A stretch of 64,000 nt of DNA from NCBI RefSeq assembly GCF_058153355.1, contig NZ_CM177019.1, one strand, 5' to 3'. Position 1 is the stretch's first letter. Every line of letters starts with the position of its first letter. The notes under the pieces are model-generated. The model worked only from the letters and a program-made list of their open reading frames with translations, was not told where the DNA came from and made no database searches. Below are positions 3,298-57,406 of the stretch, piece by piece. Position numbers and translations under genes: made by a program.

Positions 3298-3560
3298 AAG
3301 GAGTCCCTCCGCACTGTCTGAAACAGTGCAGAAATGTCTTCAGGCGTGGCGAAGCCTTACCTGAAGGTAATAAAGCTGAGCTGGGACGTTAAAACGTCAC
3401 GGCCTTACGCATCCGGTAACGCCGTGAAAAGACGGACTTACCGGAAAAGTTTTAATCTCCGTCGAGGGAGAGGCGTGGGATCAGGTTCCATATAACCTCC
3501 GGTAAGTGAAAAAAGCGCCGCAAATAATAAGGAGAATCCAATAATATTCGTGGCATTTAT
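3298..3560 (-). promoter_or_regulatory. mgtA 5' leader (Mg2+/proline-responsive attenuator region containing mgtL)
   Basis: Long untranslated region between the PhoP-box promoter and the mgtA start codon that contains the proline-rich leader ORF mgtL; the upstream boundary is approximate. Confidence 0.65.
3438..3491 (-). CDS. mgtL: mgtA leader peptide MgtL (17 aa, [17 protein letters not shown])
   Basis: Reverse complement of 3438..3491 is atggaacctgatcccacgcctctccctcgacggagattaaaacttttccggtaa. The ORF track merges it into a spurious 68-aa ORF (3438..3644). Confidence 0.85.
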
Positions 3561-10420: not shown

Positions 10421-10510
<90 letters not shown>

Positions 10511-14173: not shown

Positions 14174-14278
14174 TGCCGGATGCGGTGCACCTGTAGGCCT
14201 GATAAGACGCATCAAGCGTCGCATCAGGCACTATGCTCAAATGCCGGATGCGGCGTGAACGCCTTATCCGGCCTACAC
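14174..14278. repeat. REP/BIME cluster between yjgA and mpl
   Basis: tgccggatgcggtgcacctgtaggcctgataagacgcatcaagcgtcgcatcaggca...atgccggatgcggcgtgaacgccttatccggcctaca. Confidence 0.7.
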
Positions 14279-17430: not shown

Positions 17431-18435
17431 TTATTCTTTTAGTCTAATTTCCGGACTCACTCTCATTACTGGCGAACTCTGGCGATTCTCCCACAGCACC
17501 GTTAATCCACGCTGTAAGGCAATAAAAATGAACAGCAAAATGCCGATGGCGATTTTCGTCCACCAGGAACTCAGCGTACCGTCAAAGTTGATATATGTCT
17601 GAATCAGTCCCTGAATCGCCACGCCAAAAAGCGTCCCAAGTACTGTTCCAACGCCACCGCTCAAAAGTGTACCGCCAATCACCACTGAGGCGATAGCGTC
17701 CAGTTCCACACCTACGCCCGCCAGCGCATATCCGGCTTGGGTATAAATCGAGAAAACAATCCCCGCCAGTGTTGCCAGCCCGGTGGAGAGCATATAAATG
17801 CGAATAGTGGTGCTGCGAGTGGAAATGCCCATCAGGTTCGCCGACGTCGCGTTGCCACCAATGGCGTATACCTGATTACCAAAACGGGTACGATGCGCGA
17901 GGAATATGCCGATAACCACCACCGCAAGCATCAGCAGCCCCATCGCACTTAAGCGACCGCCGCCAGGGATTTTCCATGCAAGGCTTGAGAGCGTGTCATA
18001 AACAGGATGATTTATCGGGATCGACTCTTCCGAAACTAGATAGCTGACGCCACGCAAAAAGAACATTCCTGCCAGAGTAATGATAAACGCCGGGATCTTC
18101 AGGGCGTCGATCAAAAGCCCCATAAATGCGCCAAAGGCACAGCCCATCACCAGCACCAGTGGAAACGCCAGCAGCGGCGAGAGGCCGAAATCGCCAATCA
18201 CTTTTGCCAGAAACACGCCGGTAAAGGCGATCACCGAACCGACGGAGAGATCGATCCCACCGGAGAGGATCACAAAGGTCATGCCAACGGCGATGATCCC
18301 CAGAAAAGCGTTATCGGTCAGGATATTGCAGATCACTCTTGTGGAAGCAAAACCGGGAAACTGCGTCAGACAGTAGAGATAACCCAGCACAAAGACGCCG
18401 ATGGTGATCATAAGCGGCAGGTTACGTTTTATCAC
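17431..18435 (-). CDS. yjfF: Galactofuranose ABC transporter permease YjfF
   Basis: Multi-pass ABC-2/monosaccharide permease; last gene of the ytfQRT-yjfF cluster; exact start uncertain. Confidence 0.9.
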   Translation of the reverse strand: MIKRNLPLMITIGVFVLGYLYCLTQFPGFASTRVICNILTDNAFLGIIAVGMTFVILSGGIDLSVGSVIAFTGVFLAKVIGDFGLSPLLAFPLVLVMGCAFGAFMGLLIDALKIPAFIITLAGMFFLRGVSYLVSEESIPINHPVYDTLSSLAWKIPGGGRLSAMGLLMLAVVVIGIFLAHRTRFGNQVYAIGGNATSANLMGISTRSTTIRIYMLSTGLATLAGIVFSIYTQAGYALAGVGVELDAIASVVIGGTLLSGGVGTVLGTLFGVAIQGLIQTYINFDGTLSSWWTKIAIGILLFIFIALQRGLTVLWENRQSSPVMRVSPEIRLKE

Positions 18436-19444
18436 GGCTACGCACTCCTTTAATCAGACTGATAAAGCGTTGCGACTGAACAATCAGCACGCAAAGCACC
18501 ACTACCGCTTTCACCACCTGGTTCATCTCTGGCGGAAAGCCAGAAAGTAAAATTCCGGTGTTCATCCCCTGAATAATCAGCGCCCCTACCACTGAGAGCA
18601 GCAGGTTAAAACGCCCGCCCATCAGCGATCCGCCGCCAATCACCACCGCAAGAATGGCGTCCAGCTCCAGCCATAATCCGGCGTTGTTGGCATCGGCACC
18701 GCGAATATCCGCCGCCACGATAATGCCCGCAATCGCCGCACACAGCCCGCTCAACACATAAGTGAGCATGACGATGATTCGTGTGTTGACTCCGGCATTT
18801 TTTGCCGCCCGAATGTTGATACCAACGGCTTCGATAAACATCCCCAGTGCCGTTTTGCGGGTCAACAGCCAGAAGAGGAGAAGCGTCAGTACCGCAATAA
18901 TGACTGGTGTTGGCAGGAACACCAGCGATCCGCTGCCAAACCATGAGAGATCCGGCGAGTTAAACGTGACGATCTGTCCGGAGGTGATCAGTTGCGCCAC
19001 GCCGCGCCCGGCGACCATCAGGATCAGGGTGGCGACAAACGGCTGAATTTTGAGGATCGCTACCAGTATGCCGTTCCACAACCCCGCTAGGATGCCGGTG
19101 CCCAGGGCGCTTAACAAAACAATCGGCAGGCTGAATCCCGCGACCGTCATCGCAGCCGTTGTGGCTCCGGCGATAGCCATCACCGCCCCTACGGAGAGAT
19201 CGATACCACCGGTGGCGATAACCAGCGTCATGCCAATCGCCAGTAGCGCAACCGGGGCGGCGCGATTAAGAATGTCGATGGGGCTACCGAACAAACGCCC
19301 ATCCTGAAGCACGACCTGCCAGAAATGCGGGGCCACCAGGCTATCGACCAGCAGCACCAGCAATAGCGCCGCCAGCTGCGGCATTCCCGTTGGCCAGCGA
19401 AAGCGCCTTTTCGACGGCGTAGTGTCCGGGAGAGATTGAGGCAT
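18422..19444 (-). CDS. ytfT: Galactofuranose ABC transporter permease YtfT
   Basis: Permease with a strong RBS (TAAGGAGAA) immediately upstream of ATG 19444; the ORF-track start 19468 is rejected. Confidence 0.9.
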   Translation of the reverse strand: MPQSLPDTTPSKRRFRWPTGMPQLAALLLVLLVDSLVAPHFWQVVLQDGRLFGSPIDILNRAAPVALLAIGMTLVIATGGIDLSVGAVMAIAGATTAAMTVAGFSLPIVLLSALGTGILAGLWNGILVAILKIQPFVATLILMVAGRGVAQLITSGQIVTFNSPDLSWFGSGSLVFLPTPVIIAVLTLLLFWLLTRKTALGMFIEAVGINIRAAKNAGVNTRIIVMLTYVLSGLCAAIAGIIVAADIRGADANNAGLWLELDAILAVVIGGGSLMGGRFNLLLSVVGALIIQGMNTGILLSGFPPEMNQVVKAVVVLCVLIVQSQRFISLIKGVRSRDKT

Positions 19445-19457
19445 CACACAGTTCTCC

Positions 19458-20960
19458 TTACGCCGCAATGGCGTTCATGATCGCCGGAACGGAAAGCTCT
19501 GCCAGCGGGATCTCCGCAACCTGTTTGCGATCGCGCATGATAATCACCCGGTCGGCATAGCCCACCAGCTCTTCCAGTTCGGAGGAGATCACCAGCAGCG
19601 CCAGACCATCGGCGCATAGCGTTTCAATCAGGCGGATGATCTCAGCGTGGGCACCAACATCAATGCCGCGCGTTGGCTCGTCGAGGATCAGAAATTGTGG
19701 ACGAGTCAGCAGCCAGCGAGAGAGCAGCACTTTTTGCTGATTGCCACCGGAGAGAAACTCAATCGGCTGTTCGGTGGAAGGTGTGCGAATGCCAAGCTGG
19801 CGGATAAAACGTTCGGCAATCTCTTGCTGTTCTTTACGGGAAATCGGCCGTAGCCAGCCGCGCTGGGCCTGGAGAGCGAGGATGATATTTTCCCGCACTG
19901 AGGCGGCGGCGATGATGCCATCAGTTTTCCTGTCTTCCGGGCAAAAGCCGATGCCCAGTACCGAAGCCTGATGTGGCGATCGTAGCGTTTGCGGTTTTCC
20001 TTTGATCAGCGCCGTGCCGCTATCGGCTGGTTTGATGCCGAAGATCACTTCAGCGGTTTCTGTCCGCCCTGATCCCAGCAAACCTGCCAGCCCGACGATC
20101 TCACCAGGACGTACTTCCAGATCAAACGGTGCGATCGTTCCTTTTTTGCCGTAATTTTTGAACGCGGCAACGGGTTTGTCGCTCAGCAATGTTCGTCCGG
20201 CACGCTGTAGCGCGTGGGTGTCCAGCTCGCGCCCCAGCATCATTTTTACCAGTTCGATCTGCGGTAGCTCGCAGGTTTCCCGACAGCCTACGAAACTGCC
20301 GTTGCGTAAGACGGTGATCCGATCGCTGACCTGATAGACCTGATCGAGAAAGTGAGTAACGAAGATCAGGCTGACGCCGCGATCGCGCAACTGACGCATC
20401 AGGCCAAACAGTAACTCTACTTCCTGAGTGTCGAGGCTGGCGGTGGGTTCATCGAGGATCAGCACTTTGGCGGAGAGATCGATGGCCCGGCAAATGGCGA
20501 CGATTTGCTGCATCGCGACTGAAAAGCGGTTGAGCGGTTCCCGCACGTCGAGGGAGAAACCGTAAGATGCCATCAGTTCGGTGGCGCGCTTTTCCATCTC
20601 TTTACGGCGTAGAAGGCCGAAACGTTTGGGTTCGCGACCTATGAATAGATTATCAGCGACCGACATATTGGGTAGCAGGTTGACTTCCTGATAGACGGTG
20701 CCGATGCCGAGTTGTTGTGCGTGGGCGGTATTTTTCGGTGAGATAGTCTGGCCTTCCAGCCAGATGGTGCCACGATCGGCGTGGTAGACACCGGTTAATG
20801 CTTTGATTAGCGTTGATTTACCTGCTCCGTTTTCACCGAGCAGCGCCATGATTTCACCACGGCGCAGGCTGAAATCAACGTTGTCTAACGCTTTGACGCC
20901 GGGGAAAAATTTACTTAATCCTTCGGTGTGGAGGATTTCCTGGTGTTGGTTAGTATTCAT
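19458..20960 (-). CDS. ytfR: Galactofuranose ABC transporter ATP-binding protein YtfR (duplicated ABC domains)
   Basis: 500-aa product from ATG 20960 (MNTNQHQEILHTEGLSKFFPGVKAL...); two Walker A (GENGAGKST / GLLGSGRTE) and two signature motifs. Confidence 0.92.
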   Translation of the reverse strand: MNTNQHQEILHTEGLSKFFPGVKALDNVDFSLRRGEIMALLGENGAGKSTLIKALTGVYHADRGTIWLEGQTISPKNTAHAQQLGIGTVYQEVNLLPNMSVADNLFIGREPKRFGLLRRKEMEKRATELMASYGFSLDVREPLNRFSVAMQQIVAICRAIDLSAKVLILDEPTASLDTQEVELLFGLMRQLRDRGVSLIFVTHFLDQVYQVSDRITVLRNGSFVGCRETCELPQIELVKMMLGRELDTHALQRAGRTLLSDKPVAAFKNYGKKGTIAPFDLEVRPGEIVGLAGLLGSGRTETAEVIFGIKPADSGTALIKGKPQTLRSPHQASVLGIGFCPEDRKTDGIIAAASVRENIILALQAQRGWLRPISRKEQQEIAERFIRQLGIRTPSTEQPIEFLSGGNQQKVLLSRWLLTRPQFLILDEPTRGIDVGAHAEIIRLIETLCADGLALLVISSELEELVGYADRVIIMRDRKQVAEIPLAELSVPAIMNAIAA

Positions 20961-20993
20961 AGTTTCCCCCGTTGTAAAGCGTGCGCCAGATAA

Positions 20994-21058
20994 GACACAA
21001 CAGCGTCGCATCAGGCATCTCGCACAACCGCCGGATGCGGCATAAACGCCTTATCCGG
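20994..21058. repeat. REP element in the ytfQ-ytfR intercistronic region
   Basis: cgtcgcatcaggcatctcgcacaaccgccggatgcggcataaacgccttatccggcggcgtaca. Confidence 0.6.
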
Positions 21059-21092
21059 CGGCGTACAAGTCGGCATCAGGTATTGATGTCCC

Positions 21093-22049
21093 TCAATACC
21101 CCATATTTTTCTTCTTCTCTAACTCTTCTTTTGCGGTATCAGGCAGGTAAAGGGTGGACTTGGTCAGCGTCAGCTTTTCAGGCATCGTGCCGTCTTTTTT
21201 GTATTTCTCCAGCGCGTCAAAAGCAGGGCCTGCCATATTCGGCGTCAGTTCAACGCTGGCGTTCGCTTCGCCATCAATCATCGCTTTGTAGATGTCCGGC
21301 ACGCCGTCGATAGAGCCTGTCAGGATATCTTTGCCCGGTTTCAGGCCCGCTTCTTTAATTGCCTGAATTGCACCAATCACCATGTCATCGTTATGGGCGT
21401 AAACCATGCAGATGTTTTTGCCGTTGTTTTCCGCTTTGATAAAGCTCTCCATCACTTCTTTGCCTTTGCTGCGGGTGAAGTCACCTGACTGCGAGCGGAT
21501 AATTTTGATATTTGGCGCATTCTTAATGGCTTCGGCAAAGCCTTTCTTACGGTCAATGGCGACGCTGGCCCCAACGGTGCCCTGCAGCTCCACCACGTTA
21601 CACGGTTTGCCATTCACTTCTTTTACCAGCCAGTCACCGATCAATTTGCCTTCGAGGATGTTGTCGGCAGTGACGGTGGTCATATAGAGAGATTTGTCTT
21701 TCACATCGATGGAACGGTCAAGCAAGAAGACCGGGATTTCGGCATCTTTCGCCTCTTTTAATATCGGCTCCCAACCGGTCGCTACCACCGGAGCGATAAA
21801 GATCGCATCCACCCCTTGCGCGACGAAGGAACGTACCGCTTTAATCTGGTTTTCCTGCTTTTGCTGACCATCGGCAATTTTCAACGTAATTCCGCGCTTT
21901 TCGGCTTCACTTTTCGCCACATTGGTTTCTGCGGCGCGCCAGCCGGATTCCGATCCGACCTGCGAAAATCCTACGGTTAATGGAGCAGCCAACGCCATAG
22001 ACGACATGGCTGCCGAGACTGCAGAGACTACAAGTAAGCGTTTCCACAT
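21093..22049 (-). CDS. ytfQ: Periplasmic galactofuranose-binding protein YtfQ
   Basis: 318-aa product with signal peptide (MWKRLLVVSAVSAAMSSMALA) and sugar-binding periplasmic protein fold. Confidence 0.93.
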   Translation of the reverse strand: MWKRLLVVSAVSAAMSSMALAAPLTVGFSQVGSESGWRAAETNVAKSEAEKRGITLKIADGQQKQENQIKAVRSFVAQGVDAIFIAPVVATGWEPILKEAKDAEIPVFLLDRSIDVKDKSLYMTTVTADNILEGKLIGDWLVKEVNGKPCNVVELQGTVGASVAIDRKKGFAEAIKNAPNIKIIRSQSGDFTRSKGKEVMESFIKAENNGKNICMVYAHNDDMVIGAIQAIKEAGLKPGKDILTGSIDGVPDIYKAMIDGEANASVELTPNMAGPAFDALEKYKKDGTMPEKLTLTKSTLYLPDTAKEELEKKKNMGY

Positions 22050-22889: not shown

Positions 22890-23237
22890 GTTCTTCTAGT
22901 GCCATAACCCTGAACGCCGGGCTTCGGTTAGTAAGGGTTTTTTATGCCCGCGATAAATAAACTCTCTATTCCCCTATCATTATTCTCAGCGCTTGCAAGG
23001 CTTGAACGGTAAGAACAAGCAAACACGACCACCATTTTGCTGTTCATAGCCGCTTGCTGGAAATTAGCCGACCTCACTCATTCTCACCGTTCAAAGCATG
23101 CCCCCGTTTTACCCCTACGTAATTGTGAACGCCAGCAGAGTTTTTTATGCGTTTACGGATATGGAAAGCGGCTCGGAGAGAAAAGCTAAAGATAGGGAAG
23201 TTACAAAAAAAATCGCGAGATACATCGCATAAAACAA

Positions 23238-23263
23238 CGCCACCCGAAGGTGGCGTGCTTTTA
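23238..23263 (-). terminator. Rho-independent terminator downstream of ytfP
   Basis: cgccacc-cgaa-ggtggcg stem flanked by an A-tract and a T-tract (potentially bidirectional). Confidence 0.6.
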
Positions 23264-23266
23264 TTA

Positions 23267-30010: not shown

Positions 30011-30110
30011 TGCCGGATGCGGCGTAAACGCCTTGCCAGGCCTACAAAACCCTCAAAATTCAATGTATTGCAGAGACTTCGTAGGCCTGAACAGCATAGC
30101 GCATCAGGCA
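30011..30110. repeat. REP/BIME cluster downstream of msrA
   Basis: tgccggatgcggcgtaaacgccttgccaggcctaca ... cgtaggcctgaacagcatagcgcatcaggca. Confidence 0.65.
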
Positions 30111-30286
30111 GTTTTGCATTTATCAGTCGTCTGAATTTTAACCCTCTGGCGACTTTACAGTACCTTACGCTATACTAGCCACTGAAAATGCCGGTTCACT
30201 TTCTTCGAATCGGCTTTCAATGTGTATTTCACACAAATTAATCAACTTCCCCTTCCGAGGATCTGGCCTGAAAGGTCGGATAAGAT

Positions 30287-34756: not shown

Positions 34757-34945
34757 TTCTCCACCTCGTCTCTGTGAGCGGTGTTAACTTGTTGTTTTAC
34801 TTATACCCTATCGTTAAAGAATGCGCCAACTGTGATAGTGTCATCATTTTCAAAGCGTTAAATTGTGGCATTCTTCACTGTTCTAAAAGTAAGAGGTTTA
34901 TTCTCCCTTTTCTTTCGAATTCCCGATGATAAAAGGATGTCCCTG

Positions 34946-36914: not shown

Positions 36915-37012
36915 AACCGCATCCGGCATTTATTGGCGGATGCGGTGCTGCTGCATCTTATCCGCCCTACAGGTCATGAACCGTAGGCCGAATAAGCGCA
37001 GCGCATCCGGCT
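36915..37012. repeat. REP/BIME cluster between cpdB and ytfH
   Basis: Multiple gcatccggc / gccggatgcg REP half-sites. Confidence 0.65.
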
Positions 37013-56683: not shown

Positions 56684-57097
<414 letters not shown>

Positions 57098-57406
57098 TTA
57101 TTCAGCCTCCTGTCTGGGTCAGCCGAATCCCGGGGAGGCAAGGAACGTGTTAAAGGTCGGCTGAAAAATGACGCGTTATAGTACTGACATACCCCGCTAA
57201 ACTCAAGGCCAGCCGACAAATAAATCTCATCTTTCACCAAATCGTACTAACACGCTGATTTGAAGTTCATCACACCTCATCATGGTGTTTTTTTGAACAA
57301 CTGCATCAGAAATGGTCACCATCCACTTCTTTATCATTGATTAAAATTAAATCAGAAGATCACCACAAGAGGAGAGCACACAAAGTCAGCCGTCGAGGAG
57401 GTATCT

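Follow-up and report, generated by a model that had tools for sequence, protein, structure and literature searches.

The spacer between ytfQ and ytfR in the stretch of DNA analyzed here (64,000 nucleotides of contig NZ_CM177019.1, assembly GCF_058153355.1; hereafter the window) holds two REPs inverted to each other, one Y-type and one Z2-type. We give a probability of roughly 0.6 to the reading that this pair delimits a ytfQ-only mRNA and so yields more ytfQ than ytfRT-yjfF message, a reading in which we infer both the causal part of the REPs and the route by which it would be exerted. The arrangement itself is an ordinary one, and a REP pair in the ytfQ-ytfR spacer has been described already. 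The original prediction had placed one REP hairpin between ytfQ and ytfR of the same operon; the location was borne out, and the single hairpin had to be replaced by two inverted REPs. The interval it proposed, 20994-21058, falls inside the element but cuts the outer arm of each unit. The correct extent is 20981-21069, and the element is a two-unit REP orthologous to REP336 of E. coli K-12.

Gene Order Around the Spacer

The genes and signals that frame the spacer are as follows.

21093-22049, minus strand: ytfQ, galactofuranose-binding periplasmic protein of 318 aa (list of open reading frames, with concordant E. coli annotation)
21095-21093, minus strand: TGA stop codon of ytfQ
20964-20970, minus strand: Shine-Dalgarno sequence GGGGGAA of ytfR, 5' of the ATG
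19458-20960, minus strand: ytfR, ABC ATPase of 500 aa, with its ATG at 20960-20958
18422-19447, minus strand: ytfT, permease gene (NF041862, 633 bits)
17440-18435, minus strand: yjfF, permease gene (NF008630, 568 bits)

The NCBIfam equivalog scores of YtfQ, YtfR, YtfT, and YjfF all exceeded the curated cut-offs (for YtfQ, 632 bits with NF041827 YtfQ_transport against a cut-off of 510; for YtfR, 864.6 bits with NF041861 YtfR_transport against a cut-off of 850), and the same four gene names recur across thousands of annotated E. coli genomes. The permease genes are close-packed, with a gap of 10 nt between ytfR and ytfT and an overlap of 14 nt between ytfT and yjfF; the ytfQ-ytfR spacer spans 132 nt (20961-21092). 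Both ytfQ and ytfR are cAMP-CRP-dependent (PMC4512719).

A longer ytfR starting from the ATG at 21011, which appears as a mechanical open reading frame with 17 additional in-frame codons and a start within the Z2 REP, was dropped. This start was ruled out because it has no Shine-Dalgarno sequence and its ATG sits in a hairpin arm, because the counterpart ATG in K-12 is out of frame (61 nt upstream of the ytfR ATG versus 51 nt here), and because the NCBIfam YtfR model fits the 500-aa protein. As a separate observation, UUUUUCCCC at 20901-20909 is a candidate partner for pairing with the ytfR Shine-Dalgarno sequence, possibly lowering YtfR synthesis.

The Spacer Contains an Inverted Pair of REPs

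The element is extragenic, flanked by the stop codon of ytfQ (21093) and the ATG of ytfR (20960), and overlaps no coding sequence. The parts of the spacer, in the order in which they would occur on the mRNA, are listed below.

21069-21091, minus strand: 5' part of the spacer, with a weak hairpin at 21072-21091 (-5.4 kcal/mol) and a truncated Z-REP 5' arm, CCTGATGCCGA
21030-21066, canonical on the plus strand: Y-type REP, GCCGGATGCGGCATAAACGCCTTATCCGGCGGCGTAC, of which the mRNA has the inverted copy
21019-21069, minus strand: extended RNA stem of the Y-type REP, 17 bp, -34 kcal/mol (from inverted repeat I1 and the fold)
21017-21025, minus strand: linker between the Y and Z2 REPs, about 9-12 nt (from the sequence and from alignment with K-12 and with the REP cluster of the window at 14196)
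20981-21016, minus strand: Z2-type REP, GCCTGATGCGACGCTGTTGTGTCTTATCTGGCGCAC, in mRNA-sense orientation
20971-20984, minus strand: A/U-rich stretch GCACGCUUUACAAC, 3' of the Z2 hairpin and 5' of the ytfR ribosome-binding site, with a probability of being unpaired of 0.8-0.97

The Y unit gave motif matches at 21030-21042 (plus strand) and 21047-21059 (minus strand); its 41-nt core, which carries GCCGGATG, folds with -26 kcal/mol, compared with -34 kcal/mol for the extended stem. In the Z2 unit, GCCTGATGCGACGC is matched exactly at 21003-21016 (minus strand), and the core carries GCCTGATG with a longer loop. The Z2 hairpin (21016-20985) has a folding energy of -14.8 kcal/mol, and versions of 32-38 nt range from -14.8 to -16.3 kcal/mol. 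A direct repeat, D1, occurs at 21008-21018 and 21073-21083, the CCTGATGCCGA copy repeating the start of the Z2 REP.

The weak hairpin at 21072-21091 begins one base 3' of the ytfQ stop codon, the first strong stem lies 23 nt and the REP core 26 nt from that codon, and 24 nt separate the last hairpin from the ytfR translation start. These REP hairpins are the sole strong structures between ytfQ and ytfR. Judged from its modeled pairing, the A/U-rich stretch at 20971-20984 is a possible endonuclease entry site.

The Pair Belongs to the REP Family and Resembles BIME-2

The RNA of the whole spacer folds with -59 kcal/mol (z = -4.28), and none of 200 shuffled sequences was as stable. A 6-kb search with Rfam RF02564 (naRNA4), a REP-pair model built from REP325, returned 68.1 bits at 20984-21060 on the minus strand (E = 6e-11) against a gathering score of 59.5; on the plus strand the same model gave only 34.8 bits. 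Other Rfam matches near the site (OrzO-P, mir-1260b, and the S15 leader) stayed far under their gathering scores. In the 64-kb window the REP core motif was matched 20 times versus 3.0 expected, and none of 100 shuffles reached 20; the element itself contains both the GCCGGATGCGGC and the GCCTGATGCGACGC cores. It can be aligned with four other REPs of the window and with K-12 REP336, and a REP-containing query matched a median of 39 places per E. coli genome (40 or more in 2763 records). The element thus has the extragenic site, the stable imperfect palindrome of ∼35-40 nt, the shared consensus, and the many copies per genome that define REPs; the GTAG tetranucleotide at the hairpin foot, the guide for TnpA-REP, is absent.

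The units are arranged as in BIME-2, that is, as inverted Y and Z2 REPs with a short linker and without the long L linker that bears an IHF site. At ∼9-12 nt the linker is too short for an IHF site, and BIME-1 or RIP with an IHF site was therefore ruled out. The assignment of one unit to Y and the other to Z2 follows the consensus sequences of Gilson and Bachellier. On the strength of its sequence, the element would be classed as BIME-2-like.

The K-12 counterpart, REP336, has been cataloged at 4450945-4451029 as a "Tandem" element between ytfQ and ytfR (bioRxiv 10.64898/2026.03.23.713779, supplement). REP336 (MG1655, EcoCyc numbering) shares with the window element the locus, the flanking genes, and the architecture and orientation of the Y and Z2 units, and it likewise begins 26 nt after the ytfQ stop codon. 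The spacers differ in length (132 nt in the window versus 139 nt in K-12), and a 9-bp tail of the Z2 unit, ATGCCTACT, is present in K-12 and deleted in the window. At the Y foot the window has GTAC, with a 3-nt insertion and a longer Y stem, whereas K-12 has GTAG. The remaining differences are loop changes or replacements of G-C by G-U that keep the stems, and the window hairpins are at least as stable as those of K-12 (-59 versus -53.5 kcal/mol for the spacer fold).

Two inverted REPs with a short linker constitute a REPIN or BIME by definition, and the GTAG tetranucleotide is needed by TnpA-REP for binding and cleavage (PMC3479197). REPINs and BIMEs are mobilized by this RAYT transposase, and the window element matches their layout of two inverted units and a short linker. 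K-12 has GTAG in both units, whereas the window has it in neither, since the Y foot is GTAC and the Z2 tail that contains CTAC is deleted. The window copy, decayed in this respect and unaffected in its hairpins, is therefore probably no longer a TnpA-REP substrate.

Published Expression Data Show a Step Between ytfQ and ytfR

The REP family was first exemplified by REPs that follow binding-protein genes in ABC importer operons, and the intercistronic REPs of malE-malF and hisJ-hisQ were reportedly described by Higgins in 1982 and Newbury in 1987. As at ytfQ, the REPs of these two operons lie directly after the gene for the periplasmic binding protein of an ABC importer and precede the membrane or ATPase genes, and the upstream gene is expressed at the higher level. 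Deletion experiments addressed how the malEFG REPs affect the stability of the upstream mRNA. The step in ytfQRT-yjfF is smaller and refers to basal expression only. In K-12, DESeq2 baseMean values were 300.4 for ytfQ (957 nt) and 205.8 for ytfR (1503 nt) (bioRxiv 10.64898/2026.03.23.713779), which gives a ratio of ∼2.3-fold per nucleotide at very low, uninduced expression; the values for malE and malF, from another table of the same work, were 31709.6 and 4526.97, or ∼9-fold per nucleotide. Across tandem gene pairs with REPs, the median log upstream/downstream ratio was 0.96, compared with -0.09 in controls (bioRxiv 10.64898/2026.03.23.713779).

A step in the same direction was seen upon induction. 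In EHEC FORC_035 exposed to plant material for 3 h, the log2 fold changes were 5.77/5.58 for ytfQ, 3.66/2.90 for ytfR, 3.96/1.83 for ytfT, and 3.54/0.50 for yjfF (PMC6186786, Table 2), so that ytfQ was above ytfR by about 2-2.7 log2 units, these being fold changes and not absolute levels. All of the expression data come from the K-12 or EHEC alleles and not from the window allele. Separately, the 2.3-fold ratio could reflect differing intrinsic decay of the coding regions, which counts against a bias caused by the REPs.

A Term-seq 3' end maps to 4451058 (plus strand) in K-12, with 1505 average reads in the LB OD 2.0 sheet only, and is classed as "internal, distance 1" to ytfR (PMC7815308, supplements 1 and 3). 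This position, the A of the ytfR start codon, lies 29 nt past REP336 and is equivalent to 20960 in the window. Dar and Sorek located the ends of Rho-dependent transcripts at stable stem-loops, of which 24% are annotated REPs, as would fit trimming by exonucleases up to a structure that protects the RNA (PMC6061677). The RepRanger supplements do not contain ytfQ. The K-12 end is itself weak, and its offset of 29 nt counts against a boundary set by REP336; something else may define it.

Two expectations of the original prediction meet these data. That the binding-protein message exceeds the downstream messages agrees, only indirectly and in other strains, with the published K-12 and EHEC values, and the REPs are the proposed cause. 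Mapping of 3' ends, which it had named as a check, did yield a K-12 end in the spacer region, but one that lies beyond REP336 and not at the hairpin foot.

The REP Pair as a Candidate 3' Boundary of a ytfQ-only mRNA

No stem followed by a U-tract, as in an intrinsic terminator, was found on the mRNA strand of the spacer, and the only stem followed by a T-run lies on the antisense strand (21079-21100) and is weak. A sigma-70-like promoter for ytfR was likewise not found in the spacer. Given the absence of both, the element should be co-transcribed with the flanking genes, and ytfR should rely on read-through from the ytfQ promoter. Transcription of the element in the window is deduced from the K-12 data.

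We propose that the element is transcribed within the ytfQRT-yjfF mRNA and that a ytfQ-only mRNA would have its 3' boundary at the pair of G+C-rich hairpins or at a composite hairpin of both. The hairpins may impose this boundary by blocking a 3'-to-5' exonuclease after downstream cleavage, by partially attenuating transcription, or by both routes. The ytfQ message would then exceed the ytfR-ytfT-yjfF message, as would fit a transporter whose periplasmic binding protein is required in larger amounts than its membrane complex.

The Spacer Varies Rapidly Within E. coli

We compared the locus with E. coli genomes. Over 15 kb around it, the best identity to complete E. coli genomes was 98.6%, with 95-99% in 5420 records. 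A 192-nt spacer query gave 60-90% identity in most records and at best 99.5%; it reached 95% or more in 158 of the 5171 records, and the window therefore carries a minority allele. Between the window and most E. coli, the spacer is ∼79-81% identical and the flanks are ∼97-98% identical, so evolution is much more rapid in the spacer than on either side of it. The number of REPs varies as well, and three classes of spacer were distinguished.

76 nt: Z2 unit only (strain 1332KP)
131-139 nt: two REP units, at least 4472 of 5426 genomes
309 nt: three REPs plus a different G+C-rich palindrome, 635 of 5426 genomes

Among 60 evenly spaced rows the 76-nt allele did not occur, a rough count only, since BLAST joins split pieces. 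The segment missing from this allele is exactly the one between the copies of the direct repeat, CCTGATGC(C/G)GA. At least one REP hairpin was kept in every E. coli allele inspected. The element is thus also a fast-evolving repeat, present as one, two, or three REPs among strains.

A Structured Spacer Recurs at the Same Junction in Other Species

From 80 loci with YtfQ relatives, one genome per species, we extracted the ytfQ-ytfR spacer, and 75 spacers of 30-350 nt (median 104 nt) were folded. The z score was below -2 in 61 of the 75 species and below -3 in 44, with a median of -3.31. Only two Serratia loci had a spacer of 19-20 nt without a hairpin. The ytfR-ytfT gap measures 10 nt in enterics and did not exceed 32 nt in any of 73 loci, to be set against the 104-nt median at ytfQ-ytfR. 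Despite the shared structure, the spacer sequences are unrelated between groups, which carry the following.

REP pairs: Escherichia and Citrobacter youngae
Other REP-like pairs: Citrobacter and Enterobacter
Palindromes of the CCCTCTCCC/GGGAGAGGG type: Pseudocitrobacter, Pluralibacter, and Enterobacter cloacae
Plain hairpins, six of them with a U-tract: Pantoea, Erwinia, Aeromonas, Vibrio, and Rhizobiales

Across these groups, conservation extends to the presence of structure in the spacer downstream of the binding-protein gene and not to the REP itself.

The strain-level and species-level comparisons bear in opposite ways on the alternative that the REPs are passengers, a selfish or neutral repeat that settled where a long spacer permitted it and that does not meaningfully affect ytfQRT-yjfF expression, any excess of ytfQ over ytfR being due, for example, to how stable the coding regions are intrinsically or to how efficiently ytfR is translated. 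The low identity of the spacer within well-conserved surroundings, the variable number of REPs, and the direct repeat that flanks the Y unit, as an insertion or deletion would leave it, all speak for a passenger, as does the published finding that REPs do not change mRNA half-lives uniformly (bioRxiv 10.64898/2026.03.23.713779). The recurrence of a structured spacer at exactly the same junction in 61 of 75 species whose spacer sequences are unrelated, the restriction of short unstructured spacers to two Serratia loci, and the retention of at least one hairpin in all of the E. coli alleles seen argue the other way. So do the stem differences between the window and K-12, which keep the hairpins, and the presence of an RNA 3' end in the K-12 spacer. 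On this balance we consider it unlikely that the REPs are mere passengers. Quick divergence and variation in REP number would also be expected of a neutral repeat, and to that extent they count against a regulatory role.

Attenuation, Ribosome Stalling, and DNA-level Functions

A further alternative is that the element acts mainly as a partial Rho-assisted attenuator, lowering transcription into ytfR instead of protecting the ytfQ mRNA. BIME-associated attenuation, which would favor this alternative, was reportedly described by Espeli et al. in 2001. A parallel is REP325 of the yjdM-yjdN operon, the source of naRNA4, which acts as a partly Rho-dependent attenuator and as a stabilizer of the upstream mRNA and cuts transcription into the downstream gene about 8-10-fold, partly via Rho (bioRxiv 10.64898/2026.03.23.713779). 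The yjdM and yjdN genes, like ytfQ and ytfR, are arranged in tandem within one operon; the window element consists of one REP pair and matches the REP325-derived RF02564 in sequence and structure above the gathering score. The position of the K-12 3' end, downstream of the REPs and not at their foot, and a region of C over G at ∼20975-20886, at the start of ytfR, also point toward attenuation. Against these stand the lack of a U-tract and the start of ytfR translation 24 nt past the last hairpin, so that only a short untranslated segment is available for Rho to load. The table of Rho regions in PMC7815308 (supplement 2) has no entry at 44508xx-44511xx, weak evidence given the low expression, and the sole rut peak tied to REP336 in the preprint table is antisense (bioRxiv 10.64898/2026.03.23.713779). 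Taken together, a predominantly attenuating element is improbable, more so than a passenger.

Ribosome stalling at a REP near the ytfQ stop codon, leading to mRNA cleavage, tmRNA tagging, and lower YtfQ output, is reported for REPs at most 15 nt from the stop codon (summarized in PMC12306157) and might be sought in the weak hairpin that starts one base after the ytfQ stop, but the strong stem at 23 nt and the REP core at 26 nt (as also in K-12 REP336) lie beyond the 15-nt window, and stalling predicts less binding protein, opposite to the transcript bias, so that we regard it as highly improbable here.

Equally hard to credit is a primary role at the level of DNA, as a putative gyrase-binding BIME-2 site or a putative naRNA4-like nucleoid-associated RNA acting with HU. 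The match to naRNA4 above threshold favors such a role, and BIME-2 elements are said, by Espeli and Boccard in 1997, to be gyrase-binding sites; the Rfam match, on the other hand, reflects REP-pair sequence and not a demonstrated function, and nothing in the sequence sets the window copy apart from hundreds of others. Moreover, REP325/naRNA4 produced no measurable nucleoid compaction, and REP-REP contacts were absent in Hi-C (bioRxiv 10.64898/2026.03.23.713779).

Discussion

The reading that the REP pair delimits a ytfQ-only mRNA is of mostly confirmatory importance, as the K-12 copy has already been cataloged and the regulatory interpretation is the textbook one. The ytfQRT-yjfF operon nonetheless offers a well-posed case for separating the roles of REPs as stabilizers and as attenuators, with natural alleles of one, two, and three REPs at the same site.

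The structure of the spacer is conserved by position and not by sequence across many Proteobacteria, which argues that a hairpin, rather than a REP, is what has been retained. A more speculative proposal, which we put forward tentatively and consider possible but doubtful, is that the junction is a selected "hairpin slot," refilled by whatever mobile palindrome each genome carries, and that the one-, two-, and three-REP alleles of E. coli set different ratios of binding protein to transporter. If this were true, transporter stoichiometry could be tuned from strain to strain by the turnover of repeats.

Length alleles of the ytfQ-ytfR spacer in E. coli

The ytfQ-ytfR spacer occurs in E. coli in alleles that differ in their palindrome content. 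A 309-nt allele, which 635 of the 5426 complete genomes of this species carry and which is represented by the loci of strains AR_0118 and ST2350 (L082 and L083, positions 431–739 in each), has a third REP and a different palindrome, CCCCTCGCCCCTTCGGGGAGAGGGTTAGGGTGAGGGG. In other enterobacterial genera, the spacer is filled by similar palindromes (GGGAGAGGG/GGGTGAGGG). A rare 76-nt allele, as in E. coli 1332KP (L084, 431–506), retains the Z2 REP only. Exactly one segment of 63 nt separates it from the common allele, and the direct repeat CCTGATGC(C/G)GA bounds that segment; this points to gain or loss of a single REP unit, which would have been inserted or deleted through the repeat.

A 3' end and an antisense site at the junction

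The sole Term-seq 3' end reported for the ytfQ-ytfR junction lies at K-12 position 4451058 (+), equivalent to window position 20960 (PMC7815308). This position coincides exactly with the A that opens the ytfR ATG; it is 29 nt beyond the REPs and is not a hairpin foot. Candidate determinants of this end are weak pairing of the G-run over a long range, a cut by an endonuclease, or termination.

A terminator-type scan of the spacer returned one site, which lies antisense to ytfQ:

21079–21100, +, weak stem followed by a T-run, overlapping the ytfQ stop codon

A rut (Rho-loading) peak has been reported on the antisense strand of K-12 at 4450793–4450944 (-), 1 bp from REP336, the orthologous K-12 element (bioRxiv 10.64898/2026.03.23.713779, supplement). 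Antisense transcripts that cross the REPs may be halted here.

Other elements in the window

Further REP copies were found by Rfam search with the REP-pair model naRNA4 (first line) and by matches to the Y core motif (remaining lines, single units or small clusters):

14175–14273, Y, Z2 and a partial third unit, naRNA4 86.2 bits
512–541, REP copy
10422–10451, REP copy
30012–30024, REP copy
36915–37011, REP copy

The cluster at 14175–14273 is better preserved than the ytfQ-ytfR element, with its GTAG/CTAC feet intact, and sits between convergent ORFs of 457 aa (-) and 183 aa (+), the former being mpl as judged by size and position. Four additional Rfam matches, all above gathering score, are unrelated to the ytfQ-ytfR REP element:

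3391–3506, -, Mg2+ riboswitch (mgtA leader type)
30168–30225, +, STnc450
34823–34945, -, ES239 sRNA
57077–57161, -, RpsF leader

The ppa-ytfP gap (22890–23266) measures 377 nt in the window, whereas K-12 has 886 nt there. The window lacks the K-12 toxin-antitoxin pair chpS-chpB: tblastn gave no match, and only a remnant of ~100 nt of chpB, 76% identical, is left.

The ytfR start region

Within the Z2 REP, an ATG at 21011 (-) shares the ytfR reading frame in the window allele only, where mechanical ORF calling yields a 517-aa product. We rejected it as the ytfR start, as it is without a ribosome-binding site and its K-12 counterpart is out of frame; an automatic annotator could nonetheless mis-call the start there.

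RNA fold prediction in the window joined two segments around the annotated start:

20964–20970, -, ytfR Shine-Dalgarno, GGGGGAA
20901–20909, -, UUUUUCCCC, predicted pairing partner

The Shine-Dalgarno was predicted to be almost fully paired (probability of being unpaired, ~0) with UUUUUCCCC, which lies ~52–60 nt inside ytfR and encodes K-F-F-P-G. The same pairing was predicted in K-12 and several further enterics. It could be a by-product of a conserved protein motif; alternatively, pairing of the Shine-Dalgarno with UUUUUCCCC could reduce translation of the ATPase independently of the REP element.
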